IMG/VR virus record: IMGVR_UViG_2918843722_000002
Location: 4,720 to 68,719 of that record
Length of the DNA: 64,000 nucleotides
Direction: 5' to 3' (one strand)
Origin: a virus
Lineage: Duplodnaviria > Caudoviricetes
Shown here: positions 3,126-61,786 of the stretch, piece by piece
Numbering within the stretch: position 1 is the stretch's first letter
Layout: every line of letters starts with the position of its first letter
Notes under the pieces: model-generated
What the model saw: the letters and a program-made list of their open reading frames with translations, nothing else
What the model was told of the DNA's origin: nothing
Databases searched by the model: none
Program-made: the position numbers and the translations under genes

Positions 3126-3782
3126 TTAGGCGGCTTGCTGGCGAAGCATTTGTTCGTAAGCCGTTACGCGCTTTTCGAACTGCAACAGCTTGGCGACCAT
3201 GTCGTCGATGAACTCTTCGTTGCGCTCGATCCGCTTGATGTACAAGTCGCGCCCGACAGATTCGAGCGCCGGCACGTACTGGATAAAGTCGCAGTAAGCG
3301 CGGCCCGTCAGGAAGAGTCCAAACTGGATCTGATGGTCATATTCCGACGTGTCGCCGGTCATCAGCATATGCATGATCTTGACGGTATCGACAGGGCATT
3401 TTATTTCGATGATGCCGTGATCGTCGTTTAGAAATCCGTCGCTTGAATATCCGAATTTTCGGTCGTCGGACAGGACGATGCCAGACTCCATCGCGAGGTT
3501 GCCGGTCCGCTCCTCGTACAGCATCCGCGCGACAGGCTCCAGAGCATGCCCGCGCTCAAGCGTGTACGCCTTGATCGGCGCAGCGTACGGGACGCCGCTA
3601 ATGCGCTCGAATGCGACCTCGTAAGCGTACTTGTCGGATGCGTCGGTCGGATCACCTGGATTCCTCGATCCAGACTTGCGCTGGAGAACGGAAATCGCAT
3701 CCGAGACGCGCGACGCGGTAATCGCGCCACTTCGGGCTTGTAGCCATTCTTGACTGCCCTGCACTGCTTCGATGAGCAACAT
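3126..3782 (-). CDS. YqaJ/lambda-Exo-type recombination exonuclease
   Basis: QGSQEWLQARSGAITAS, RGHALEP, SSDG...EIKCP, QIQFGL motifs; next to RecT. Confidence 0.92.
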   Translation of the reverse strand: MLLIEAVQGSQEWLQARSGAITASRVSDAISVLQRKSGSRNPGDPTDASDKYAYEVAFERISGVPYAAPIKAYTLERGHALEPVARMLYEERTGNLAMESGIVLSDDRKFGYSSDGFLNDDHGIIEIKCPVDTVKIMHMLMTGDTSEYDHQIQFGLFLTGRAYCDFIQYVPALESVGRDLYIKRIERNEEFIDDMVAKLLQFEKRVTAYEQMLRQQAA

Positions 3783-14774: not shown

Positions 14775-15467
14775 GTGGCCGGGGATTGGATCAAGATGAG
14801 AATTGCTTTGGCGGATGACCCCGCAGTCATTTCTATTGCTGCGCGTCTGTCGGTTGACGAGTTCACCGTGGTGGGCATGTTGCATCACCTCTGGGGATGG
14901 GCTGATACGCAGTCACGCGATGGTCACGCCCCCGGCGTGACAAATGTCTGGATAGATCGGTACGTTCGTCACGTCGGATTCGCCGAAGCGATGGTTTCCG
15001 TTGGATGGCTGGAGATAGACGAGTCCGGCGTGACATTCCCGAACTTTGACAGACACAACGGCGAAAGCGCCAAGGCGCGGGGCTTAGCGGCGGAAAGAAA
15101 GAGAAACCAGAGAAGCAGAGTCACGGAAGATGATGGACAAATGTCACGGTCTGAGCGTGACAAAAGCGTGACCAGAGAAGAGAAGAGAAGAGAAGAAGAT
15201 AAAGAAAGCACTCCGAACGCTTCGCGTCCGAAATCTCGCAAGACTGCGATGCCCGAAGACTTTAGCGTCAGCGATCGCGTCGAGTCATGGGCAGTCGAGA
15301 ACGGCTACGAATTTCTTGACGAGCATCTGGCGTCATTCAGACGGAAGGTCGCAGCGAACGGTTACAAGTACGTCGATTGGGATTCTGCGTTCATGGAAGC
15401 GATACGCGGAGATTGGGCAAAAATCAACGGCAGGCCGAAAGGCAATACTCCGGGGTTGGTACTGTGA
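14775..15467 (+). CDS. Replication initiator (lambda O-like)
   Basis: MAGDWIKMR...VVGMLHHLWGWAD winged-helix N-terminus; internal iteron/A-rich tract; position before the helicase. Confidence 0.8.
   Translation: MAGDWIKMRIALADDPAVISIAARLSVDEFTVVGMLHHLWGWADTQSRDGHAPGVTNVWIDRYVRHVGFAEAMVSVGWLEIDESGVTFPNFDRHNGESAKARGLAAERKRNQRSRVTEDDGQMSRSERDKSVTREEKRREEDKESTPNASRPKSRKTAMPEDFSVSDRVESWAVENGYEFLDEHLASFRRKVAANGYKYVDWDSAFMEAIRGDWAKINGRPKGNTPGLVL
14911..15210. repeat. Putative origin: GTCACG/CGTGAC iterons and AGAAG purine tract inside the initiator gene
   Basis: At least 8 GTCACG or CGTGAC hexamers between 14911 and 15173, followed by an AGAAG-repeat tract. Confidence 0.6.
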
Positions 15468-17197
15468 AAACATTCATAGATTTCGGAATCGATTTGGGCA
15501 GCAAAAGCGGCGTCGAAGTTAAAACGACGTGCCCGCAATGCTCGTCAGGCCGGAAGAAAAAGAACTATCCATGCCTAAACGTCAACACGGAACAAGGCGT
15601 TTGGAACTGCTGGCATTGCGGCTGGAGCGGTACTCTGAAGGGCGGCGAATGGCAAAAACCAGAAGTGCGTAAGGTCTACACGAGACCTGCATTTGCTGCG
15701 CCAGCTCAAGTTCCTGACGGAACCGTCGCATGGTTCAAGACACGTGGCATCGATGCTGCGGCGCTTGAGCGGAACAAGATCGCTAAGGGTTTGACTTACT
15801 TTCCCCAAGTCGAGGAAGAGCGGGACTGCATCATGTTCCCGTACTACCGCGGCGAAGAAGTCGTCAACATAAAGTACCGCAGCAAAGACAAGATGTTCCG
15901 CATGGCATCCGGCGCCGAGCGCATCCTATACGGAATCAATGACATCGATCCCGAAGGACTGATCTGGGTCGAGGGCGAAATCGACAAGCTGTCGGTCGAG
16001 ATGGCCGGCCTGACGAGTTGCGTGTCTGTGCCAGATGGTGCCCCGGCCGCCGACTCGAAGTCGTACAGCAACAAATTCGACTTTCTCGCAGAGAAGGCTC
16101 TCGAGGATGTGAAGGTGCACATCATCGCTGTCGACAACGACGAGCCCGGTGTTCGCCTTCAGGAAGAATTGGTGCGCCGCCTCGGTCGCGAGAAATGCCT
16201 GATCGTCGTGTGGCCTGAACACTGCAAAGACGCCAACGAGGTTTTGCTGACGCATGGCCCAGACGTCCTGCTCGACTGCATCAAGAACGCCCGTGCGTTG
16301 CCGATTGAAGGCACATACAGCGTCAACGACATTATCGAATCGATCTTCAACGACTACGAATACGGCCCCGAATGCGGCGTGTCGACAAGCTGGGCAGAAA
16401 TGGACGACACGTATCGCGTCATGACCGGCGAATGGACGCTCGTAACGGGCATCCCTGGGCATGGCAAATCGGAGTGGTTGGACGCCCTAGCCCTGAATCT
16501 GGCGAACCACTACGGCTGGAATTTTGGGATTTTCTCGCCGGAAAATCAGCCGCTCAAGTACCACGTCGAGAAGATGGCGGAAAAGTTCGTCGGCAAGCCA
16601 TTCATGGAAGGGTTCACGGATCGTATGTCGTTCAAGGAGATGAGCGAAGCGCTGAAGTTCATCAACGATCACTTCCATTTCATGCTGCCCGACTATCCGA
16701 CCGTCGACGGCTTGCTCGAGATATCTCAACAACTGGTCTTTCGCCACGGTATCCGGGGTTTGATTATCGACCCATGGAACGAGATAAACCCGGCCCGCGA
16801 TGGCAACGTCACTGAGACGGACTACATCAGCCAGGCTCTGACGAAGATCCGTACATTCGCGCGCCGCAATCAGGTTCACGTATGGCTAGTCGCTCACCCA
16901 ACGAAGCTGCAGAAGGATAAGACGACCGGCGCCTATCCGGTTCCGACGCCGTATGACGTCAGCGGATCGGCTCACTGGCGAAACAAGGCGGACAACTGCA
17001 TCACCGTCTATCGAGATGTTGTGCAGGCTGGCTCGCCCGTGCAGGTTCATGTTCAGAAGGTCCGGAAAAAGACAAACGGCAAGGTCGGCATGGTCGAGTT
17101 CGACTACGACCATATCTGCGGCAGATATAAGCCATACAAGAAGAGCGTCCTACCGAACACGTATTCGATGCATCACCGTAAGAAGGAGGCCGCATGA
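15464..17197 (+). CDS. Bifunctional primase-helicase (T7 gp4/Twinkle-like)
   Basis: CPQC...C..CG zinc finger, TOPRIM WVEGEIDKLS and AVDNDEPG, Walker A GIPGHGKS, LIIDPWN, VAHPTK. Confidence 0.92.
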   Translation: MKTFIDFGIDLGSKSGVEVKTTCPQCSSGRKKKNYPCLNVNTEQGVWNCWHCGWSGTLKGGEWQKPEVRKVYTRPAFAAPAQVPDGTVAWFKTRGIDAAALERNKIAKGLTYFPQVEEERDCIMFPYYRGEEVVNIKYRSKDKMFRMASGAERILYGINDIDPEGLIWVEGEIDKLSVEMAGLTSCVSVPDGAPAADSKSYSNKFDFLAEKALEDVKVHIIAVDNDEPGVRLQEELVRRLGREKCLIVVWPEHCKDANEVLLTHGPDVLLDCIKNARALPIEGTYSVNDIIESIFNDYEYGPECGVSTSWAEMDDTYRVMTGEWTLVTGIPGHGKSEWLDALALNLANHYGWNFGIFSPENQPLKYHVEKMAEKFVGKPFMEGFTDRMSFKEMSEALKFINDHFHFMLPDYPTVDGLLEISQQLVFRHGIRGLIIDPWNEINPARDGNVTETDYISQALTKIRTFARRNQVHVWLVAHPTKLQKDKTTGAYPVPTPYDVSGSAHWRNKADNCITVYRDVVQAGSPVQVHVQKVRKKTNGKVGMVEFDYDHICGRYKPYKKSVLPNTYSMHHRKKEAA

Positions 17198-20556: not shown

Positions 20557-20897
20557 GCGACGAAGGCGAAATCAACATCTTCCGCGCCTTGGACTTCATC
20601 AGAGATAACGCGCCGGCCTACGCCCAAGCAAAGGCCCAGCGCGTTTATCTGGAGAACTTCCGCAAGAGCAAGAAGGCATTGCTGATGCGCGCTGCGGAAA
20701 TCCGAGGGCACAAGACGGCGGCTATTCAGGAGCGCGAGGCGTACGCCGACGACGGCTATGTCGAGATACTGGCTGCGCTCCAAGCGGCAACCGAGGAAGA
20801 AGAGCGGCTGCGCTGGATGATCGTAGCCGCTGAGGCCAAGATCGAATGCTGGAGAACCATTGAGGCCAATCGTCGCGCCGAAGCGAGGGCTTTGTGA
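20553..20897 (+). CDS. Helical phage protein (UvsY-like size and pattern)
   Basis: YAQAKAQRVYLE...EREAYAD...IECWRT.EAN.R. Confidence 0.6.
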   Translation: MSDEGEINIFRALDFIRDNAPAYAQAKAQRVYLENFRKSKKALLMRAAEIRGHKTAAIQEREAYADDGYVEILAALQAATEEEERLRWMIVAAEAKIECWRTIEANRRAEARAL

Positions 20898-21025
20898 AAC
20901 AGAGCCAACTATACGCAATTCTGCTGGCGATCATGGTTTCGCCCCACATGTCCGCGCCATTTGCCTTGGGCAGCGCCGTCATCTATCTCGTCTGTATGTT
21001 TGCGGCGATGTGGAGGGAAGCTTGA
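20894..21025 (+). CDS. Small membrane peptide (43 aa)
   Basis: Coupled at both ends, hydrophobic. Confidence 0.45.
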   Translation: MKQSQLYAILLAIMVSPHMSAPFALGSAVIYLVCMFAAMWREA

Positions 21026-21633
21026 TCCGTACTTCCCTGCCCGTAAAGAAGGCATTGAAGCCGCGCCGTTGCCGGTCGTGCGGGAACCCCTATGTTCCGA
21101 TCAGCAGCATGGCCAAAGCGTGCTCGGTCCCCTGCGCCCTCGATCTGGTCCGTCAGGCCAACGCTCGCAAGGAAGCCAGAGCCAAGCGCGAGGAACGTGC
21201 GGCTACTCGGGTGGCGAAGGAGAAGCTGAAGAGTCGCGCCGATTACTTGAGGGAGGCGCAGACCGCGGTAAATGCCTACGTTCGACTCCGGGACGCCAAT
21301 GAACCGTGCATATCGTGCGATCGGCCGGCGACCTGGGGCGGCCAATGGCATGCGAGTCACTACCGCTCTGTTGGATCGAACCCTGGCTGGCGCTTCAACG
21401 TTCTGAATATTCACCGCGCCTGCAGTATCTGCAACGCGTGGAAAAGCGGGAATCTCACGGAATATCGGCCAAGGCTTATCACAAAGATCGGCTTGGAGCG
21501 AGTCGAGTTACTGGAGCAGGAAAGCCCGGTCAGGAAATACGACATTGAGTACCTGAAGCGGCTCAAGAAGGTGATGAACAAAAAGGCACGCCGGCTGGAG
21601 CGGCGGATTGAACAACGAAAGGAGGCGGCGTAA
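21022..21633 (+). CDS. ninG: NinG/Rap-family recombination nuclease
   Basis: RRCRSC...CSVPCA, YVRLRDANEPCISC, WHASHYRSVG, NIHRACSICN..KSGN..EYR; TTG start with GGAGG. Confidence 0.9.
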   Translation: MIRTSLPVKKALKPRRCRSCGNPYVPISSMAKACSVPCALDLVRQANARKEARAKREERAATRVAKEKLKSRADYLREAQTAVNAYVRLRDANEPCISCDRPATWGGQWHASHYRSVGSNPGWRFNVLNIHRACSICNAWKSGNLTEYRPRLITKIGLERVELLEQESPVRKYDIEYLKRLKKVMNKKARRLERRIEQRKEAA

Positions 21634-23150: not shown

Positions 23151-23660
23151 ATGTTCAAAGACAAGTACGCAAGCGACGTCAGAAGTTCGAATCTCGCATG
23201 GAACGAGCGGGAAGAGAAGTCGATTGATCGACTCACGGCAATGGGCCTTTCTGACCCGCTCGGCGCCGCCTTATTCCGGTTCAAGTTCGCATCGGATGCT
23301 GCATCGGGAAAGCGCGCGATTCATCTTCTGGCGCACAAGGCGAAGTGCAATCTCGGCGTCGAGCTCAGCTACGCAACGAAACTGGCGACGGCTTGCATCA
23401 GGGAATTCGTGCTGGACAACTGCGTGCCGTGCAACGGCGCCGGCCTGATTCTCAATGGCTCGCGTTACGACAAATGCACGAAGTGCGACGGCTCCGGCGT
23501 CAAGCGTCACTCGGATAGCGAGCGCGCATTGGCTGCGGGCCTGCCGGTCGAATCCTGGCCGAAGCATCAGAAGAACTTCGATCGCACGATGGTATGCCTG
23601 ACTGGTTCGGTGGCAGCGGCTGGTGGAAAGGTGCGCGAACTGCTCCGAGAGGCGGCATGA
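23151..23660 (+). CDS. Q-like late antiterminator
   Basis: CVPCNGAG...CTKCDGSG zinc finger; position upstream of a promoter-terminator pair. Confidence 0.7.
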   Translation: MFKDKYASDVRSSNLAWNEREEKSIDRLTAMGLSDPLGAALFRFKFASDAASGKRAIHLLAHKAKCNLGVELSYATKLATACIREFVLDNCVPCNGAGLILNGSRYDKCTKCDGSGVKRHSDSERALAAGLPVESWPKHQKNFDRTMVCLTGSVAAAGGKVRELLREAA

Positions 23661-24602: not shown

Positions 24603-24833
24603 ATGGTCACCTACTACCTCGCGCAGGCCGACGATGGCCGGGTCACGCTCGACCGCGAATGCCACGGCTCATTGCTGAAGGCGATCACGGTTAGCGATCC
24701 GGAAGTTATCCGCCGCGAAGTCGAAGGCGAGATGGTGGACGTGCCGCAATACTGGCAGAGCTACGCCAATGCGCGTGTACAGGTGGATGAAGGTGAGTTT
24801 CGGCATGTGCGCGGCGAAGGATATTTCGCATGA
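24603..24833 (+). CDS. Hypothetical protein
   Basis: GGAG RBS. Confidence 0.65.
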   Translation: MVTYYLAQADDGRVTLDRECHGSLLKAITVSDPEVIRREVEGEMVDVPQYWQSYANARVQVDEGEFRHVRGEGYFA

Positions 24834-24955
24834 ATCCGGTGACGGCATTCTGGATCCTCTGCGCAACCTGGAACATTGGGATGACGCAGATCATGATCGA
24901 CCTGGCGGAAGGCTGGGACGGCCGACTCGCTGCTGGTGGTGTGCTCGAGAGTTGA
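24830..24955 (+). CDS. Small hypothetical peptide (41 aa)
   Basis: ATGA-coupled MNPVTAFWILCATW... Confidence 0.4.
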   Translation: MNPVTAFWILCATWNIGMTQIMIDLAEGWDGRLAAGGVLES

Positions 24956-25070
24956 TTGACGGCCGGCAGTGTTGCAGGCCGGAAGACAGATTGGATTGAT
25001 CCCCTGCTCCGCCGCCAGCCGGTAGGCCCGGCAGCTTGATACGGGCGGTGGGGCGCCAATTATCGTTTAT

Positions 25071-25183
25071 GGGGCGCCGAATCTGGCCCGCACGCGATGC
25101 TAGCGATAGCGGCGTGGCTGGTGAGTAGGACAGCAGGAAAGCGCTTTGGCGTGAGCAGGGTTCGAATCCCTGCCGCCCCTCCA
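25071..25183 (+). ncRNA. tRNA-like element with canonical T-loop and encoded CCA but no anticodon loop
   Basis: GGGGCG/CGCCCC-T-CCA; GCAGGG-TTCGAAT-CCCTGC; GCTG/CAGC arm; CACGC..GCGA..GCGTG arm. Confidence 0.65.
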
Positions 25184-25574
25184 GAGTACCCGTCATGGGC
25201 TTGAGTCTGGGTCCGCGAAAACGTTGACTCAGCGAAATCGACCGGAAGATAGGCCGGATGCACGAACCCGTAACGTGCGACAGACAATCCGTTGCCGTGG
25301 CGGCCCATCATTGGGATAGCGCGGACAGCGCCAGCGGGCGGTGTGCTGAACATGAAAACACCCGCAGCACAGCACGCCCTGCCTCGACCGGCGAAACCGG
25401 TCCAAAAGTTCAGGGCGGGGCTGTACGCGATTCGCGCGAGACCGGTGCAGATGAGGTCGCGTGACTGGCATCCCCCAAGCGTTCCAGCGCTTTGCCGGCC
25501 ACATGCCTTGACGCTCGACGGTGCCGGCGCGCGATGATCGTTAGCCGCCTGACCGGCGCAACCGGTCCTTTCAC

Positions 25575-25652
25575 GCATGGCGTAGCTCAGAGACTGAGAG
25601 AGCATGGGGCTAAAACCCCAGCGGGATGGAGATAGCAGCCCCATCCGCCAGC
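25575..25652 (+). ncRNA. Degenerate tRNA-like cloverleaf
   Basis: TGGCG/CGCCA acceptor; TA-GCTC...GAGC D-arm; TGGGG-CTAAAA-CCCCA (6-nt loop); GATGG/CCATC with an 11-nt loop. Confidence 0.6.
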
Positions 25653-25770
25653 CGTGAAGGCGAATATCGTCGGTCGCGCGAGTCGATAGACTGCCAAGGC
25701 GCCATGTGGGCCGCGACTAGTAGCTTTCACCCAGTCTCCTCTTTCAGGCGCACTCCCCTGAGCGTCTGAA

Positions 25771-25796
25771 TTGCCGCTTTCGGGCGGCTTTTTCAT
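25771..25796 (+). terminator. Rho-independent terminator ending the structured RNA region
   Basis: GCCGC/GCGGC hairpin plus TTTTT. Confidence 0.7.
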
Positions 25797-25809
25797 TTCT
25801 GGATCTCCG

Positions 25810-26025
25810 ATGGCAGCTCGCAAGACAGTAAAAGTCGTCGCTGAGCGCACGGAGATCTGTAAGAACTGTCGCCACGCATCAGTAAAGCGCGGCGAAGAAA
25901 TCCAGTGCCGCAGATTCCCGCCTCAGTTCGTGTACGACTCGTCAAGTGGTTGCACAGGCGTAACGCATCCCCCGGTCGATGCCGACCATTGGTGCGGGGA
26001 ATTCGGCGCATATCTAAATTCGTAA
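25810..26025 (+). CDS. Small Cys-rich phage protein
   Basis: CKNCRH...CRRFPP...V..DHWCGEF. Confidence 0.75.
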   Translation: MAARKTVKVVAERTEICKNCRHASVKRGEEIQCRRFPPQFVYDSSSGCTGVTHPPVDADHWCGEFGAYLNS

Positions 26026-26035
26026 AGGGGAAACC

Positions 26036-27220
26036 GTGGCACGACAATACGACCCGCGATTGCGAGAATTTGCCGATGCCCGGGAAATTTCCTTCCTCGA
26101 AGCGATCGAGAAGCACGGCAAGCCCACGCACGCAGCAAAGGCGCTAGGTCTGCATCACAGCGTCGTAATCCGCGCTCTGGACAACCTGGAGCGGCGGGCG
26201 GCGAAGATGGGGTACTCGCCGGCGCACGATATGACGCATACCGTGCCGGATGGGTTTCGGGTCAAGGGTACGTCGACGCTGTATGACGAGGATGGTAAGC
26301 CTCGCATGCAGTGGGTGAAATCCACGGTCGATCACGATCGCATGGAAGTCATCATGCGCGAGGCCGCGGCTGCGATGGCGGAAAGCCTGCCGCGCGTGCG
26401 CCCTGTTGCCGTCCCGGCAAAGACCGACGCTGCCCTGTGCAACGTCTACACGCTGACCGACAGCCACGTCGGAATGCTCGCGTCCGCGAAAGAAACTCTC
26501 GACGCGGATTGGGATCTGAAAATTGCCGAGCGCACGCTGACGGCTGCGTTTTGCCATATGGTGAATGCGGCGCCGAAGGCGTCCGTTGGTATGGTCGCGC
26601 AACTCGGAGACTGGCTGCATTCCGATGGTTCCGGCGGCCTTTTGCCAATTACGCCCCAACATGGTCACGTTTTGGACCAGGATGGGCGGTTCTCGAAGAT
26701 CGTCTCCACGTCGATCCGCATCCTTCGCCGCATCGTGGATTTCGCGCTTGAGCGGCACGACAAGGTTGTAGTCCTGTTGGCGGAAGGCAATCACGATATG
26801 GCGTCGAGCATCTGGCTTCGCGCCATGTTCGCCGCACTGTATGAGAATGAGCCGCGGGTTCAGGTGATCGATTCGGCGCTTCCCTATTACGTCTATCAGC
26901 ACGGCAAGACGATGCTCGCGTTCCATCACGGGCATATGAAGAAGAATTCGGATCTACCGCTTTTGTTCGCCAGCCAGTTTCCGAAGGTCTGGGGCGACAC
27001 GACGAAGCGGTATTGCTCGACGGGACACAGGCATCACGTCGAAGAGAAAGAACACTCCGGAATGACGGTGATCCAGCACCCGACGCTTGCCGCTCGCGAC
27101 GCTTACGCCGCACGCGGAGGGTGGCTCTCCGAGCGGTCGGCTACGGCAATCACATACCACTCGCAATACGGCCAAGTGGCGCGCAATACGGTGGTGCCTG
27201 AGATGTTCGAAGCCGCCTAA
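26036..27220 (+). CDS. HTH plus calcineurin-like metallophosphoesterase
   Basis: TDSHVG, GDWLH, EGNHD, FHHGH, TGHRHH motifs; N-terminal AAKALGLHHSVV HTH. Confidence 0.88.
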   Translation: MARQYDPRLREFADAREISFLEAIEKHGKPTHAAKALGLHHSVVIRALDNLERRAAKMGYSPAHDMTHTVPDGFRVKGTSTLYDEDGKPRMQWVKSTVDHDRMEVIMREAAAAMAESLPRVRPVAVPAKTDAALCNVYTLTDSHVGMLASAKETLDADWDLKIAERTLTAAFCHMVNAAPKASVGMVAQLGDWLHSDGSGGLLPITPQHGHVLDQDGRFSKIVSTSIRILRRIVDFALERHDKVVVLLAEGNHDMASSIWLRAMFAALYENEPRVQVIDSALPYYVYQHGKTMLAFHHGHMKKNSDLPLLFASQFPKVWGDTTKRYCSTGHRHHVEEKEHSGMTVIQHPTLAARDAYAARGGWLSERSATAITYHSQYGQVARNTVVPEMFEAA

Positions 27221-29107: not shown

Positions 29108-29605
29108 ATGGCAGCGCTCACAGATGACGTGAAAGCGTTCGTCGTGCAAGCGCTGGCGTGCTTTGACACTCCCACGCAGGTAGCGAACGCTGTAAAGGAA
29201 GAGTTCGGGTTAGAAATTACCCGGATGCAGGTGTCGACTTACGACCCGACGAAGTTCATGGGGCGCAACCTCAGCAAGAAGTGGCGCGAGATTTTCGAGG
29301 CGACGCGGAAGGCGTTTCTTGAGGATCAGGCTTCTATCCCGATTGCTAATCAGAACTTCCGGCTGCGTGCGCTCAACAATCTTTACCAGAACGCCGCAAC
29401 TCGCGGCAATGCTGCCCTCGCCGCTCAATTGCTCGAGCAGGCCGCCAAGGAATCTGGAGGCGTCTTCACTAACCGTCGAGAGATGACTGGCAAGGATGGC
29501 GCTCCACTGATCCAAACAAAGAGCGCCCAGGAAATGACGGATGACGAACTCGCCGCCTACATTGGAGCAAGCGGCGCAAGAACTTTGGATACGCCGCAGG
29601 GCTAG
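29108..29605 (+). CDS. terS: Terminase small subunit (DUF2280-like)
   Basis: VKAFVVQALACFDTPTQVA..VKEEFG...IPIAN..FRLRAL; directly upstream of TerL. Confidence 0.8.
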   Translation: MAALTDDVKAFVVQALACFDTPTQVANAVKEEFGLEITRMQVSTYDPTKFMGRNLSKKWREIFEATRKAFLEDQASIPIANQNFRLRALNNLYQNAATRGNAALAAQLLEQAAKESGGVFTNRREMTGKDGAPLIQTKSAQEMTDDELAAYIGASGARTLDTPQG

Positions 29606-31085
29606 AGAGGACGTCCTATCCTACGCCCAAGCTATTGAGATACCGGGCAAACCTGCCGGCGAAGATCCAGACACTGAGTTCTTCGAGCCCATCGAAACGA
29701 CGATGGCGCAGCACCACCGCCTCATTCTCGAGACGATGGAGCGGGTTAGCAAGACGCCGCACGGCCGGGCCATGTTCTTCATGCCGCCGGGTAGTGCGAA
29801 GTCGACCTACGCGTCGGTTGTGTTTCCCTCGCGGTATCTTGGCGCGGAAAAGAATCGCAAGGTCATTCTCGCCAGCTACGGCGACGACCTCGCCCGCAAG
29901 ATGGGACGCCGTACCCGCTCGATCATCAAGCAGAAGCGGTTCAAGGGGATTTACGGCTGCGAACTGACGACTGAATCGTCCGCAGCACAAGAGTTTTCGC
30001 TGACGAACGGCAGCGAATACATCGCGACTGGGATTCTGGGTGGCGTAACGGGTAACCGCGCCAACGGCATCATCATTGATGACCCGGTTAAGGGCCGCGA
30101 GCAGGCTGACTCTCCAACGATCCGTGACAAGACGTGGGATGCCTATAACGACGACCTGAAAACTCGTCTCATCCCTGGCGGCTGGGTTGTAATTATCCAG
30201 ACGCGGTGGCACGAAGACGACCTCGCCGGCCGCATCCTTCCTGAAGACTGGAAGGGCGAAAGCGGCCCGATCATGTGCCGCGACGGCAACGTCTGGGAAG
30301 TCGTCTGTCTGCAGGCGCGCTGCGAAGTCCAGAACGACCCGCTCGGTCGAAAGATCGGCGAGTACCTCTGGCCGCAATGGTTCACCGAAAAGCACTGGGC
30401 GCAGTTTCAGAACAACGTCCGCACGTGGGCGTCGCTTTATCAGCAGTTGCCCCGCCCGCTTGAGGGCACGCTGTTCAAGGTCGAGAACATGTTGGTCGAT
30501 GGCCAGCCGGTCCCGATGCCGAGACAGTGCGATTACGTGTTTGCTGTTCTGGATTCGGCACTCAAAGCTGGCGACAAGAACGACGGGACGGCGGTCACCT
30601 ACTTCGCCCGCAACAAGTACCACGGCCATCCGCTGATTATTCTCGACTGGGATATCACGCAGATCGAATCTGACCTGATAGCTGAGTGGTTTCCGTCCGT
30701 CATGTCGAGGATTGGCGAACTGGCGAGTATGACCGGCGCGAGGTTCGGTGGTATCGGCAGCTTTGTTGAAGATAAGGGGAGCGGCATCACTCTTCTGCAA
30801 CGAGCCGCGCGCAATGGCTGGCCAGCGCATGCGATTGATTCAAAGTTGACGTCTATGAGCAAGGACGCCCGAGGGACCGGCGTGTCCGACTTTGTGCATC
30901 ACGGACAGGTCAAGATCAGCGAGCACGCCTACAACAAGATCGTTGAATACAAGGGCCGTTCGCAAAACCACTTCCTCAGCCAGTTCTTCGGTTACCGGCT
31001 GGGCGTTCCTAATCAGGCAGATGACCTCTACGACACGGGGGTCTATGGCATTGCAATTGGCCTTGGAGATTCCAAGGGCATTTAA
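29541..31085 (+). CDS. terL: Terminase large subunit
   Basis: MPPGSAKS Walker A, IIIDDPVK Walker B, IQTRWHEDDL.G, LYQQ.P, DSA.K...D nuclease motifs. Confidence 0.95.
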   Translation: MTNSPPTLEQAAQELWIRRRAREDVLSYAQAIEIPGKPAGEDPDTEFFEPIETTMAQHHRLILETMERVSKTPHGRAMFFMPPGSAKSTYASVVFPSRYLGAEKNRKVILASYGDDLARKMGRRTRSIIKQKRFKGIYGCELTTESSAAQEFSLTNGSEYIATGILGGVTGNRANGIIIDDPVKGREQADSPTIRDKTWDAYNDDLKTRLIPGGWVVIIQTRWHEDDLAGRILPEDWKGESGPIMCRDGNVWEVVCLQARCEVQNDPLGRKIGEYLWPQWFTEKHWAQFQNNVRTWASLYQQLPRPLEGTLFKVENMLVDGQPVPMPRQCDYVFAVLDSALKAGDKNDGTAVTYFARNKYHGHPLIILDWDITQIESDLIAEWFPSVMSRIGELASMTGARFGGIGSFVEDKGSGITLLQRAARNGWPAHAIDSKLTSMSKDARGTGVSDFVHHGQVKISEHAYNKIVEYKGRSQNHFLSQFFGYRLGVPNQADDLYDTGVYGIAIGLGDSKGI

Positions 31086-37270: not shown

Positions 37271-37327
37271 GCCCGCGCCTAGGATGGCGCATCCGAAAAT
37301 CCGTTCCCTGTACGGATCGGCGCGGGC
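37271..37327 (+). ncRNA. C4-like cis-acting RNA element 1
   Basis: GCCCGCGCC/GGCGCGGGC closing stem, TAGG-hairpin-CC-GAAA, ATCCGT/ACGGAT hairpin. Confidence 0.55.
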
Positions 37328-37358
37328 ACCTTAACAGGGGATCTATACAGGAAAGATC

Positions 37359-57720: not shown

Positions 57721-57749
57721 AAGCCGCCCACAGAGGCGGCTTTTTCTTT
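57721..57749 (+). terminator. Terminator after higBA
   Basis: AAGCCGCC/GGCGGCTT plus T-run. Confidence 0.75.
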
Positions 57750-57788
57750 TCTGCTCCCGCGCAGAATTTGCCCAACCAATCACACGAC

Positions 57789-61397: not shown

Positions 61398-61420
61398 AGC
61401 CGCCTTCGGGCGGCTTTTTT
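61398..61420 (+). terminator. Rho-independent terminator
   Basis: AGCCGCC-TTCG-GGCGGCT plus T-run. Confidence 0.75.
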
Positions 61421-61786
61421 ATGTCTATGCCAATCATCAAACACCTGGTCGATGCTGCAAAAGGAAAGCATCCGGTGACTGCCAAACGCTCGTCGCATTG
61501 GCCCACAGTACGAAAGCAGCATCTAGCGCTGCACCCGACATGCGCAGTCTGTGGCGGCACCGAAAACCTCGAAGTGCATCATCGGCGTCCTTTCCATCTG
61601 CATCCCGATCTCGAGCTAGATCCTGCCAATCTGGTGACGCTCTGCGAATCGAAAAAGAGCGGCGTGAACTGCCACCTTTGGTTCGGCCACCTCGGAAATT
61701 TCCGTAGTTTCAATGTTGACGTGTTGCTCGATGCTGCCACCTGGCTCGGCAAGCTTAAGAGCCGCCCGCTATCTGATAAGGAATGA
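61421..61786 (+). CDS. HNH endonuclease
   Basis: CAVCGG...LEVHH..PFH...NLVTLC...CH. Confidence 0.88.
   Translation: MSMPIIKHLVDAAKGKHPVTAKRSSHWPTVRKQHLALHPTCAVCGGTENLEVHHRRPFHLHPDLELDPANLVTLCESKKSGVNCHLWFGHLGNFRSFNVDVLLDAATWLGKLKSRPLSDKE

Follow-up and report, generated by a model that had tools for sequence, protein, structure and literature searches.

Conserved RNA modules frame a variable, non-decoding cargo in a probable tRNA-array cassette ahead of phage late genes

Our analysis shows that the gap of about 0.85 kb at 24956-25809 of the 64,000-nucleotide stretch of phage DNA under study (the window) contains conserved RNA modules, with A at the 5' edge, followed by D and then by B, P1, and E near the 3' edge, that frame a variable cargo. 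In the lineage as a whole this cargo consists of 0 to 8 true tRNAs or of tRNA-derived RNAs, and in this phage every position is non-decoding. We consider it probable that the gap is this lineage's tRNA-array cassette, a mosaic that is read on the + strand and that would be transcribed, processed, able to gate the late genes, and kept for a role other than decoding. Modules A, D, P1, and E have no match in Rfam 15 and, as judged from comparison of related sequences, constitute four well-supported RNA motifs that are new to this database.

A non-coding locus at the head of the late genes

The gap is non-coding and adjoins the prophage late genes on their 5' side. The gene order, in which NinG/Rap is followed by a Q-like gene, the cassette, and then the terminase and portal genes, is of the lambdoid type, and this synteny backs the original placement of the region at the head of the late operon. 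Located 1.3 kb upstream, the Q-like gene is assigned by a weak, partial PHROG match (E = 9e-6). Of the elements expected of a late leader of the pR'-tR' type we see the terminator described below, and a conserved promoter was not found. The first gene after the cassette (25810-26025, + strand) encodes a 71-aa Cys-rich protein and the next (26036-27220, + strand) a 394-aa HTH-metallophosphoesterase, and both genes are conserved downstream of the cassette in most relatives. The metallophosphoesterase has matches in 2062 phage records, all below 60% identity. A link between the cassette and neighbors of the RNA-repair type was considered and set aside because the HAD phosphatase has no homolog in any of the related loci retrieved and the metallophosphoesterase is common in phages that lack E.

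The original prediction held that the region contains no credible ORF and is densely paired, and these two claims fared differently. GC content by frame is flat over 24950-25800, in contrast to the flanking genes, and the gap is mosaic between near relatives, which we count among the evidence against coding. The six longest ORFs on both strands of the gap, including a 194-aa ORF on the minus strand, gave no match to Pfam or PHROG and span mosaic joints, and we therefore rejected protein coding. By contrast, over most of the gap pairing does not exceed chance; inside it the mean folding z-score is -0.89 compared with -0.43 in the flanks (p = 0.12). The only outliers are the terminator (z = -3.7) and P1 with its cloverleaf, for which z ranges from about -3.5 to -4.2, and thermodynamic stability was dropped as evidence because it is not significant overall.

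ARAGORN reported no tRNA or tmRNA in the window at default settings or in the gap down to -ps90, and the Rfam tRNA model (RF00005) had no match in 24800-25950 even at E up to 10; both do call tRNAs in the cassettes of relatives. At -ps80 and -ps70 ARAGORN gave marginal calls on both strands that we treat as noise, with the exception of a 73-nt alternative fold of the 3' part of the tRNA-like element (TLE), the anticodon arm of which is deleted in the relative L113. A tmRNA, for which the criterion was a tRNA-like domain with G3:U70, a tag reading frame, and pseudoknots, was likewise rejected: ARAGORN proposes a permuted candidate at -ps80 only, with a span of 690 nt across unrelated modules, and pair 3-70 of the TLE is G-C. 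A cmscan with all 4227 Rfam 15 families, run on the window at the gathering score and on 24800-25950 at E up to 10, returned no match to GOLLD, ROOL, or other large-RNA families even at the permissive setting, and a nucleotide search with the region found no match among cultured phages.

Conserved modules frame variable cargo

The same slot, from the Q-like gene to the late genes, is present in related Paraburkholderia and Burkholderia prophages on 37 viral contigs and in 6 bacterial species. In these relatives it is a mosaic cassette with 0 to 8 genuine tRNAs, which ARAGORN identifies in 13 loci (the Rfam tRNA model confirms part of them), and the four non-tRNA modules A, D, P1, and E recur in it with compensatory base changes. 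All four behave as conserved structured RNAs, E and D against both shuffled and slid controls, and the retention of their structure in relatives is at odds with the concern, raised at the outset, that structural conservation might be absent altogether.

Mosaic joints lie at the end of A and at the terminator. In L002, A is followed directly by B-P1-E; G051 lacks 25275-25560 and has an ORF that starts right after E; L091 carries A 1.8 kb downstream of E; and L096, L107, and L120 have tRNAs 3' of E and lack the terminator. A single RNA-library contig crosses the slot; it comes from a relative in which 374 other letters replace 25062-25797, its cargo differs from that of this phage, and it could be DNA carry-over; it is evidence for neither transcription nor transcript ends. 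The best-conserved parts of the cassette are the non-tRNA modules A, D, P1, and E, a point that had gone unnoticed in the original prediction.

Module A (24997-25057, + strand) consists of an 11-bp outer stem (25006-25016/25044-25054) around a 5-bp hairpin (25018-25022/25028-25032), the loop of which, U-N-G-G-N, is conserved. It was found by nhmmer in 21 related loci. In relatives its start coincides with the stop codon of the nearest ORF on its 5' side, and it sits at the 5' boundary of the cassette. Alignment and consensus fold reveal double changes at 5/9 pairs of the outer stem, and by eye the inner stem occurs in the alignment as six different sequences, all of which pair; this inner hairpin and hairpin 2 of module D were compared by eye because differences in loop length shift the alignment columns. 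A pair of promoter-like hexamers (25036-25063, + strand, 16-nt spacer) has a predicted start at about 25070-25071, coinciding with the first base of the TLE. One such site was found where 1.3 are expected by chance, its -35 part is not conserved in L002, L012, and L044, and neither a promoter scan nor the module A alignment revealed a conserved promoter in the cassette; the pair is an unproven candidate promoter.

Module D (25184-25281, + strand) comprises four conserved hairpins: a local hairpin with a loop that varies in relatives (hairpin 1, 25189-25199), a covarying helix (hairpin 2, 25207-25213/25226-25232), a hairpin with GAUAG in its loop (hairpin 3, 25242-25245/25254-25257), and a hairpin with a conserved 9-nt loop (hairpin 4, 25260-25264/25274-25278), all on the + strand. 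The last of these pairs in 10/10 sequences, with four pair types at one position; its covariation score is 0.363 compared with 0.105 for shuffled alignments, and slid controls pair at 23-35%. Across the 278 nt common to this phage and G051 (24997-25274), all 11 differences lie inside module D, either in loops or in compensatory pairs. Three multibranch closing pairings drawn in the original prediction were not retained: in place of 25196-25201/25304-25309 relatives have the local hairpin 1, in place of 25203-25208/25227-25232 they show the covarying helix of hairpin 2, and the ACAGC pairing clashes with the Rfam fold of the Proteo-phage-1 motif discussed below.

Toward the 3' edge, hairpin B (25551-25567, + strand; 6-bp stem, 5-nt loop) lies immediately 5' of P1 and has a diverged counterpart before P1 in L002, L012, and L044. 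P1 (25568-25581/25647-25660, with two internal mismatches) is an extended acceptor helix formed from the leader and trailer of a tRNA. Among 31 distinct relatives a mean of 14.1/16 P1 positions are paired compared with 10.0 with mismatched partners, a count that is somewhat inflated because each partner strand was the best-matching segment inside a 400-nt range. Individual positions show as many as five pair types. The apical insert of P1 ranges from 6 to 95 nt in relatives and is a true tRNA-Trp in L096 and L107, while in L102 a tRNA with D and T arms and no anticodon arm sits inside P1.

Domain E (25656-25728, + strand, 73 nt) has a 6-bp outer stem (25656-25661/25723-25728) that is bordered by GAA on one strand and by AGUA on the opposite one; its inner stem bears a 4-bp hairpin (25681-25684/25689-25692). 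Across the 38 distinct sequences aligned, pairing is seen in 97.5% of cells, and 100 cells carry double changes compared with 30 in shuffled alignments (0 of 500 shuffles reach 100); slid controls pair at 32-49%. The search pattern fixed several positions, and invariant columns there are therefore partly an artifact. G.U pairs are frequent (15/38 and 21/38 at two pairs) and pair on the + strand only, which argues for an RNA signal over a DNA signal. The covariance model of E, R1, scores 80.9 bits for this phage with a single copy in the window, and its matches are confined to a close phage group; in a genome-wide scan with the E pattern, 19/25 matches were chance hits in GC-rich genomes in which the rest of E is missing. 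E occupies the next tRNA-sized slot: it begins 2-3 nt 3' of the tRNA-Trp enclosed by P1 in L096 and L107, the same gap follows the upstream tRNA in L120, and in tRNA-bearing relatives the next tRNA lies 5-20 nt 3' of E. Its fold is rod-like with an acceptor-like outer stem and bears no likeness to a cloverleaf, and a true N-CCA follows the outer stem in only about 4/38 sequences, so that the idea of RNase P acting on E is a guess. Because P1 also uses the five bases at the 5' end of E, the two helices are mutually exclusive.

Downstream of E lies a C/U-rich, G-poor spacer (25729-25742, + strand) with a run that resembles an anti-Shine-Dalgarno sequence. Similar C/U-rich runs follow E in about 21/38 members (by eye) and are absent where a tRNA or ORF directly follows E. 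The cassette ends with a hairpin (25743-25751/25762-25770) and an intrinsic terminator (25773-25778/25783-25788, T run 25789-25793), which together (25743-25793, + strand) have a folding z-score of -3.70; the terminator scan returned the same site, so that the terminator originally predicted was found at 25773-25788 ahead of its T run. Equivalent terminators are present in L002, L003, L012, L044, and L113, and there is none in L096 and L107, in which tRNAs reach up to the first late gene.

tRNA look-alikes and a phage-specific insert

The TLE (25071-25183, + strand) has an acceptor stem (25071-25077/25173-25179) with 6/7 positions paired and one C.C mismatch, a T arm (25156-25172) with a 5-bp stem and a canonical 7-nt loop, a discriminator U, and CCA at 25181-25183, giving a UCCA 3' end; the original description of a tRNA-like unit with a T loop and CCA at this place was thus accurate. 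Between these parts, 25083-25125 forms a long irregular arm capped by a GNRA tetraloop, and there is no anticodon arm. The element shares 96% identity with its counterpart in G051/L090 and 74% with that of L113, in which two T-stem pairs are changed on both sides and 15 nt (25131-25145) are missing; it is known from only three phages, and with three sequences the covariation evidence is weak. The discriminator base differs between this phage and L113, and accordingly no fixed aminoacylation identity is apparent. In combining an acceptor stem and a T arm without a working anticodon arm the TLE resembles mascRNA/MEN-beta (RF01684), but the 3' 69 nt score 26.4 bits against that model, far below the cut-off of 42.5; because the mascRNA family is eukaryotic, the likeness is an analogy of shape only.

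The second look-alike is the pseudo-tRNA held by P1 (25568-25660 with P1, + strand; folding z = -3.47). Its body (25582-25646) combines a D-like arm with a 5-bp stem that carries an A-rich loop of 6 nt (25605-25620); where a tRNA has its T arm, 25624-25646 forms a 6-bp arm whose 11-nt loop includes GAUAG. Both the fold and the relatives support the cloverleaf with a 6-nt anticodon loop inside a closing stem of about 14 bp that had been proposed, and this cloverleaf is located exactly at the tRNA-Trp site of L096 and L107. L104 (87.5%) and L106 (80%) carry this pseudo-tRNA too, altered only in loops or by compensatory exchanges, and the 6-nt loop is kept in all three phages, whose cassettes otherwise differ. 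With a TLE that lacks an anticodon arm and a pseudo-tRNA that has a 6-nt loop and an arm that is not a T-loop arm, neither is a tRNA; in agreement with the tRNA searches and with the position of the cloverleaf in a tRNA-Trp slot, this supports the earlier view that the tRNA-derived units are unable to decode normally. The GAUAG loop motif occurs five times in the gap compared with about 0.56 expected from the window-wide rate.

Between module D and hairpin B lies an insert of 265 nt (25282-25546, + strand) that is specific to this phage, with zero BLAST coverage from 56 related loci. It includes a predicted local stem (25376-25382/25411-25417, + strand) around a copy of hairpin B, which is the fourth of the closing pairings originally proposed and lies in a segment found only in this phage, and 25381-25403 matches 25547-25568 as an internal repeat. 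The insert also contains the Proteo-phage-1 motif (RF03044; 25289-25369, + strand), an already described small-RNA candidate with no known function. The match scores 48.1 bits against a gathering score of 42, is full-length (model positions 1-82), and forms both hairpins; membership holds for 25289-25369 only, and this identity had been missed in the original prediction. As in G045/L082, the copy opens a long intergenic region that is flanked by same-strand phage genes; here, however, it accounts for only 81 of about 850 nt, in a segment common to no relative. The motif scores above the cut-off in 1/50 related phage records and 1/150 Burkholderiaceae genomes and is thus rare and not syntenic. 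Its absence from 49/50 related records, from 5 host genomes, and from 149/150 Burkholderiaceae genomes led us to reject it as an organizing element, and it is cargo here and not the core of the locus. The flanks of two other copies were uninformative, and a literature search on the motif, with the supplements of the discovery paper outside its scope, found nothing.

Possible roles of the cassette

In our preferred reading as a tRNA-array cassette, the region would be transcribed as a single precursor, by read-through from upstream genes or from a promoter near A, and host tRNA-maturation enzymes would cut the precursor to tRNA-sized pieces, with RNase P acting at 5' ends and an endonuclease possibly acting on the long P1 helix. 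Transcription would stop at the terminator (25773-25793) unless RNA polymerase were termination-resistant, and the cassette would in this way gate the late genes; because the terminator is absent in tRNA-rich relatives, gating is not a universal role. The conserved modules may function in cis in processing, stability, or read-through, and the tRNA look-alikes may be kept by selection for a non-decoding role. What the modules do we infer rather than show. One of the two architectures originally offered, a polycistronic array of tRNA-derived RNAs, gains support from the real tRNAs in the same slots of relatives and from differences that are compensatory rather than random.

The conserved part could instead serve the control of late transcription in cis, with A and/or P1-E modifying the polymerase or switching folds to permit terminator read-through, with HK022 put RNA or riboswitch-like attenuators as analogs. 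This explanation overlaps with the tRNA-array cassette and is compatible with it, and we regard it as possible, though not as the expected outcome. E lies 45-80 nt upstream of a terminator and the first late gene in most members, its first five bases have two alternative partners, the 5' strand of P1 and the 3' end of E, both of which are conserved, and in L044 the first bases of E change together with the 3' partner; the position of A at the 5' boundary, from the stop codon of the upstream gene, would also fit. The arrangements in L096, L107, and L120 (tRNAs after E and no terminator), in G051 (an ORF right after E), and in L091 (A far downstream of E) are difficult to reconcile with such control, and we see neither likeness to put in sequence or fold nor an invariant junction resembling a ligand pocket. 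It is more doubtful that the two tRNA look-alikes, and perhaps E with them, act as decoys for or inhibitors of host tRNA-cleaving defense nucleases or of enzymes that modify or charge tRNAs, the real tRNAs of relatives being replacements in the same arms race. The fast turnover of cargo between near-identical phages is as expected for an arms-race locus, and arms are kept by compensatory changes in RNAs that do not decode, as illustrated by the 6-nt loop kept in three phages, the covarying T stem of the TLE, and the L102 tRNA without an anticodon arm; the excess of GAUAG loops points in the same direction, as does the proposal that phage tRNA arrays are anti-defense systems (PMC12803027). No defense system or target was identified, however, and a TLE restricted to three phages with a discriminator that differs between this phage and L113 is not readily explained in this way. 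We tentatively extend this idea to the cassette of Paraburkholderia phages as a selected toolkit of host-processed tRNA mimics (TLE, pseudo-tRNA, and E) acting against tRNA-targeting defenses or tRNA enzymes, in which the recurring GAUAG loops could be the mark of a shared protein partner.

That the odd cloverleaves are dead tRNAs in a decaying cluster and the remainder functionless spacer would account for the lack of ARAGORN and Rfam tRNAs here next to live tRNAs in the same slots of relatives, for folding energies mostly no better than those of the flanking genes, and for a 265-nt insert without relatives. We find this unlikely, because the differences in D, in P1, in the pseudo-tRNA arms, and in the T stem of the TLE are compensatory or in loops, E and P1 are kept over 31-38 distinct sequences with strong covariation, and the pseudo-tRNA persists in three otherwise different cassettes. 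A single large RNA of the GOLLD or ROOL kind over the whole 0.85 kb, the other architecture originally offered, is highly improbable: a long non-coding prophage stretch beside tRNA-type sequences is the usual context of GOLLD and ROOL (PMC5737381), but the modules here are gained, lost, and swapped independently, as in L002 and G051, the long-range pairings are not kept in relatives, and the result is a modular mosaic without an Rfam large-RNA match and not one conserved fold. We give equally little credence to E as a self-cleaving ribozyme by which the tRNA on its 5' side would gain a free 3' end. HDV-like theta ribozymes hold such a position directly 3' of phage tRNAs (PMC10879173), and in L096, L107, and L120 only 2-3 nt separate E from the preceding tRNA; however, the 5' end of E pairs with its own 3' end, unlike the nested double-pseudoknot order of HDV-like ribozymes, and by our reading of the alignment the candidate internal partner of the 5' end overlaps a strongly covarying hairpin and is not conserved. 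The conserved positions of E also misfit, and no HDV-like, hammerhead, twister, pistol, or hatchet model matched at E up to 10.

The locus can be compared with known systems. Lambdoid phages carry tRNA gene clusters downstream of the Q antiterminator gene, as in 933W with three tRNA genes before the late genes. The locus studied here likewise has a nin region and a Q-like gene upstream, late genes downstream on the same strand, and a terminator nearby, and relatives of this phage hold 1-8 real tRNAs in the slot; it differs in that this phage has no decoding tRNA, and we know of no modules like A, D, P1, and E in the lambdoid clusters. The tRNA cluster of phage T4 includes two small stable RNAs (species 1 and 2), the function of which is not known. 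They are comparable in being tRNA-sized non-tRNA RNAs in a phage tRNA array at tRNA-like spacing, presumably freed by the same processing enzymes, which for our phage would follow if the cassette is processed as we suggest. Host and phage type differ, E is rod-like with an acceptor-like outer stem, and no sequence relation is expected.

Phage tRNA clusters are usually read as helpers for codon usage and recently as a counter to tRNA-cleaving defenses. Here a single locus presents, in close relatives, a series of states from full tRNAs through an anticodon-less tRNA and a pseudo-tRNA with a 6-nt loop to plain hairpins, in every case carried by one and the same conserved stalk, with a shared tRNA-sized structured domain after it, and thus offers a natural experiment on the role of the non-tRNA parts of a phage tRNA array. 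In addition, the orphan Proteo-phage-1 motif gains a concrete transcriptional context. If the cassette is a toolkit of tRNA mimics, E and the P1 stalk would represent a novel RNA class that travels within phage tRNA arrays. If the look-alikes are decoys or processing platforms, they would broaden what tRNA mimicry is known to do in phage-host conflict; if they are not, the analysis still provides a clean annotation of a region left blank by gene callers.

A non-coding slot ahead of the late genes

The source record is an IMG/VR provirus, and its genes follow a lambdoid order: a primase/helicase (15377-17197), NinG/Rap (20860-21633), a zinc-finger protein whose Q-like match is weak (23151-23660), a HAD phosphatase with small ORFs, a non-coding cassette, an HTH-metallophosphoesterase (26036-27220), the large terminase (29541-31085) and then the portal. 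On this synteny, the original prediction that the cassette stands at the head of the late operon is a fair reading. Approximately 850 nt, from the end of a run of small + strand ORFs (24955) to the start of a 71-aa Cys-rich gene at 25810, the first gene after the region, carry no coding signal. GC content by frame stays flat here, compared with between-frame differences of 0.2-0.4 in the flanking genes, and neither Pfam nor PHROGs has a match for any of the six longest ORFs, both strands considered, bearing out the earlier view that no credible ORF is present. Across the whole window ARAGORN calls neither a tRNA nor a tmRNA, and the single Rfam 15 match above gathering score in the region is Proteo-phage-1 (RF03044). 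The predicted terminator is real, with a GC-rich 6-bp stem (25773-25788) followed by a T run; the dense pairing ascribed to the region did not hold up, its folding energy being no better than that of the flanking genes except at the terminator and at a long closing stem (P1).

The terminator sequence (25773-25800) recurs at 61399-61426 and 57735-57753 with 89-95% identity. An int-alpA RNA (Rfam RF02996) lies at 37272-37340 (52.8 bits, above the family cut-off), with matches also in the related loci L003 (3100-3165) and L106 (10097-10162). Relatives of the metallophosphoesterase occur in 2062 cultured phage records, all below 60% identity, from hosts including Escherichia, Klebsiella, Salmonella, Vibrio and Rhodobacter, and their annotation varies between metallophosphoesterase, exonuclease and DNA polymerase II.

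Conserved RNA modules in a mosaic cassette

We fetched 80 viral loci by metallophosphoesterase homology, among which only the closest share the flanks of the cassette with the window. Their comparison reveals a mosaic in which module A (24997-25057) and a 3' block (~25650-25740) recur and the intervening content differs. In L002 (88% protein identity) the 3' block directly follows A, so that ~470 nt of the window are extra. A search pattern derived from the 3' block matched 37 viral contigs; in the genome collection, true copies occur only in six Paraburkholderia/Burkholderia genomes, all beside the same phage genes, and the 19 other matches were rejected as chance. In L091 (2017-2069 and 3823-3886), A lies 1.8 kb downstream of domain E rather than upstream, and module order is therefore not fixed. 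In L003, the cassette terminator is separated from the Cys-rich late gene by an inserted ORF (3182-3647) that by eye resembles an HNH/AP2-type homing endonuclease.

Across 38 distinct sequences, the consensus fold of domain E (25656-25728) consists of outer and inner stems plus a hairpin, with 97.5% of cells paired compared with only 32-49% in slid controls. Double-sided changes occupy 100 cells versus 30 in shuffles, none of 500 shuffles reaching 100; covarying positions were left free by the search pattern, which partly fixed the invariant ones. E contains many G.U pairs that the other strand could not form, so the functional form is the + strand RNA. Beside the outer stem, GAA faces AGUA in the window and in most members, an arrangement reminiscent of an internal loop of the loop-E/sarcin-ricin type. 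Searching with the covariance model of E yields a single copy in the window and, among the 80 loci, matches in the close group only. Two conserved pairing partners are available to the first five bases of E, the P1 5' strand and E's own 3' end, and a change in these bases in L044 is matched by the 3' partner; this alternative pairing could act as a folding switch or set the order of processing. About half of the members have a C/U-rich run after E, whose possible roles are those of a seed region, a Rho site or an attenuator component. In L090, a relative with 96% identity, a 108-aa ORF on the minus strand (2337 down to 2011) directly follows E ahead of the terminator, indicating that E can serve as an mRNA 5' leader.

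Module A is present in 21 loci, with double changes at five of the nine outer-stem pairs and six different stems for its inner hairpin. Module D (25184-25281) has an overall covariation of 0.363 compared with 0.105 when shuffled; its last hairpin pairs in all ten sequences and shows four pair types at a single position, and its second hairpin covaries in sequences that align in register. Over the 278 nt shared with L090, all 11 differences are confined to D, where they fall in loops or form compensatory pairs.

tRNAs and their derivatives

In relatives, the slot is a tRNA array: ARAGORN identified genuine tRNAs, from 1 to 8 per cassette, in 13 of the related loci, and Rfam supports part of these calls. 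P1 (25568-25581 with 25647-25660), the long closing stem of the original prediction, encloses a tRNA-Trp in L096 and L107, with E beginning 2-3 nt beyond it and the next tRNA 5-20 nt past the end of E. P1 is thus an acceptor helix extended by leader-trailer pairing of a tRNA, and E (73 nt in the window) fills a tRNA-sized slot. Across relatives, P1 content forms a series from the real tRNA, through a tRNA with D and T arms and no anticodon arm (L102), the pseudo-tRNA of the window (25582-25646), L104 and L106, and unrelated multi-hairpin inserts in other relatives, to plain 6-7-nt loops (L092, L112 and L119). In the oriented copy of L102, the tRNA-like RNA lies ~100 nt before E, its D and T arms are normal and only 8 nt replace the anticodon and variable arms. 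In 31 distinct sequences, P1 pairs at a mean of 14.1 of 16 positions versus 10.0 with partners swapped between sequences, a mean somewhat inflated by picking the partner as the best match within 400 nt; individual positions show up to five pair types, and mismatches recur at two positions.

The features predicted for the tRNA-like element (25071-25183) are present. Three phages only carry the element; in its L113 homologue (74% identity), two T-stem pairs are changed on both sides, the outer acceptor pairs are retained, the discriminator base differs and a 15-nt stretch that makes a small hairpin in the window is absent. A sub-threshold mascRNA-like alignment (25111-25179) is the only other Rfam match in the region with E <0.01. 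The pseudo-tRNA keeps its 6-nt A-rich loop in all three of its carriers, with compensatory changes in the stem of that loop, the T-position arm and P1. By every test, both elements are unable to decode.

GATAG occurs on the + strand at 25105, 25248, 25315, 25631 and 25685, five times in 855 nt where ~0.56 are expected (42 in the whole 64-kb window), each in or beside a hairpin loop (the apex of the tRNA-like element, the second D hairpin, Proteo-phage-1, the pseudo-tRNA T-position arm and the E hairpin, respectively). In relatives, conservation extends to the D, E and pseudo-tRNA copies, and the recurrent motif may mark a shared binding partner.

The segment 25282-25546 has no relative in any locus fetched. 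It holds Proteo-phage-1 (25289-25369; full length, 48.1 bits versus a cut-off of 42), which is cargo given its rarity in the phage group and the host family, and a copy of the hairpin preceding P1 (25551-25567), suggestive of an insertion with local duplication. The long-range closing pairings proposed for the region fare poorly: in place of two of the four, relatives form local hairpins that covary, the third is incompatible with the fold that Rfam gives for Proteo-phage-1 and the fourth sits inside this segment.

Alternative readings and a model for the cassette

Altogether, the cassette is a modular, non-coding, + strand element of conserved RNA structure in a tRNA slot before the late genes. 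Its locus identity and conserved structure are well supported, and we consider the tRNA-array reading as a whole somewhat probable. A dedicated antitermination or switch element, which overlaps with this reading, is a possibility to which we give limited weight, and tRNA decoys against host defences seem rather unlikely. Non-functional decay is improbable: the compensatory changes and kept features of the tRNA-like element and the pseudo-tRNA mark them as maintained RNAs rather than random wreckage. One large RNA, or a ribozyme, we regard as very improbable in either case.

Both Proteo-phage-1 and tRNA clusters behind Q are already known; no Rfam family corresponds to the four covarying modules, to the P1 stalk and its exchangeable content or to the conserved tRNA derivatives that cannot decode, and our literature search found no description of them. 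In the tRNA-array model, the cassette would be transcribed as one precursor. Read-through from upstream is favoured because A in relatives starts at the stop codon that ends the upstream ORF; the single promoter-like site (25036-25063), with a predicted start at the first base of the tRNA-like element, is at chance level and not conserved. Host tRNA-processing enzymes would then cut the precursor into tRNA-sized RNAs, and the transcript would end at 25773-25793 unless termination is suppressed, these processing and gating steps being guesses.
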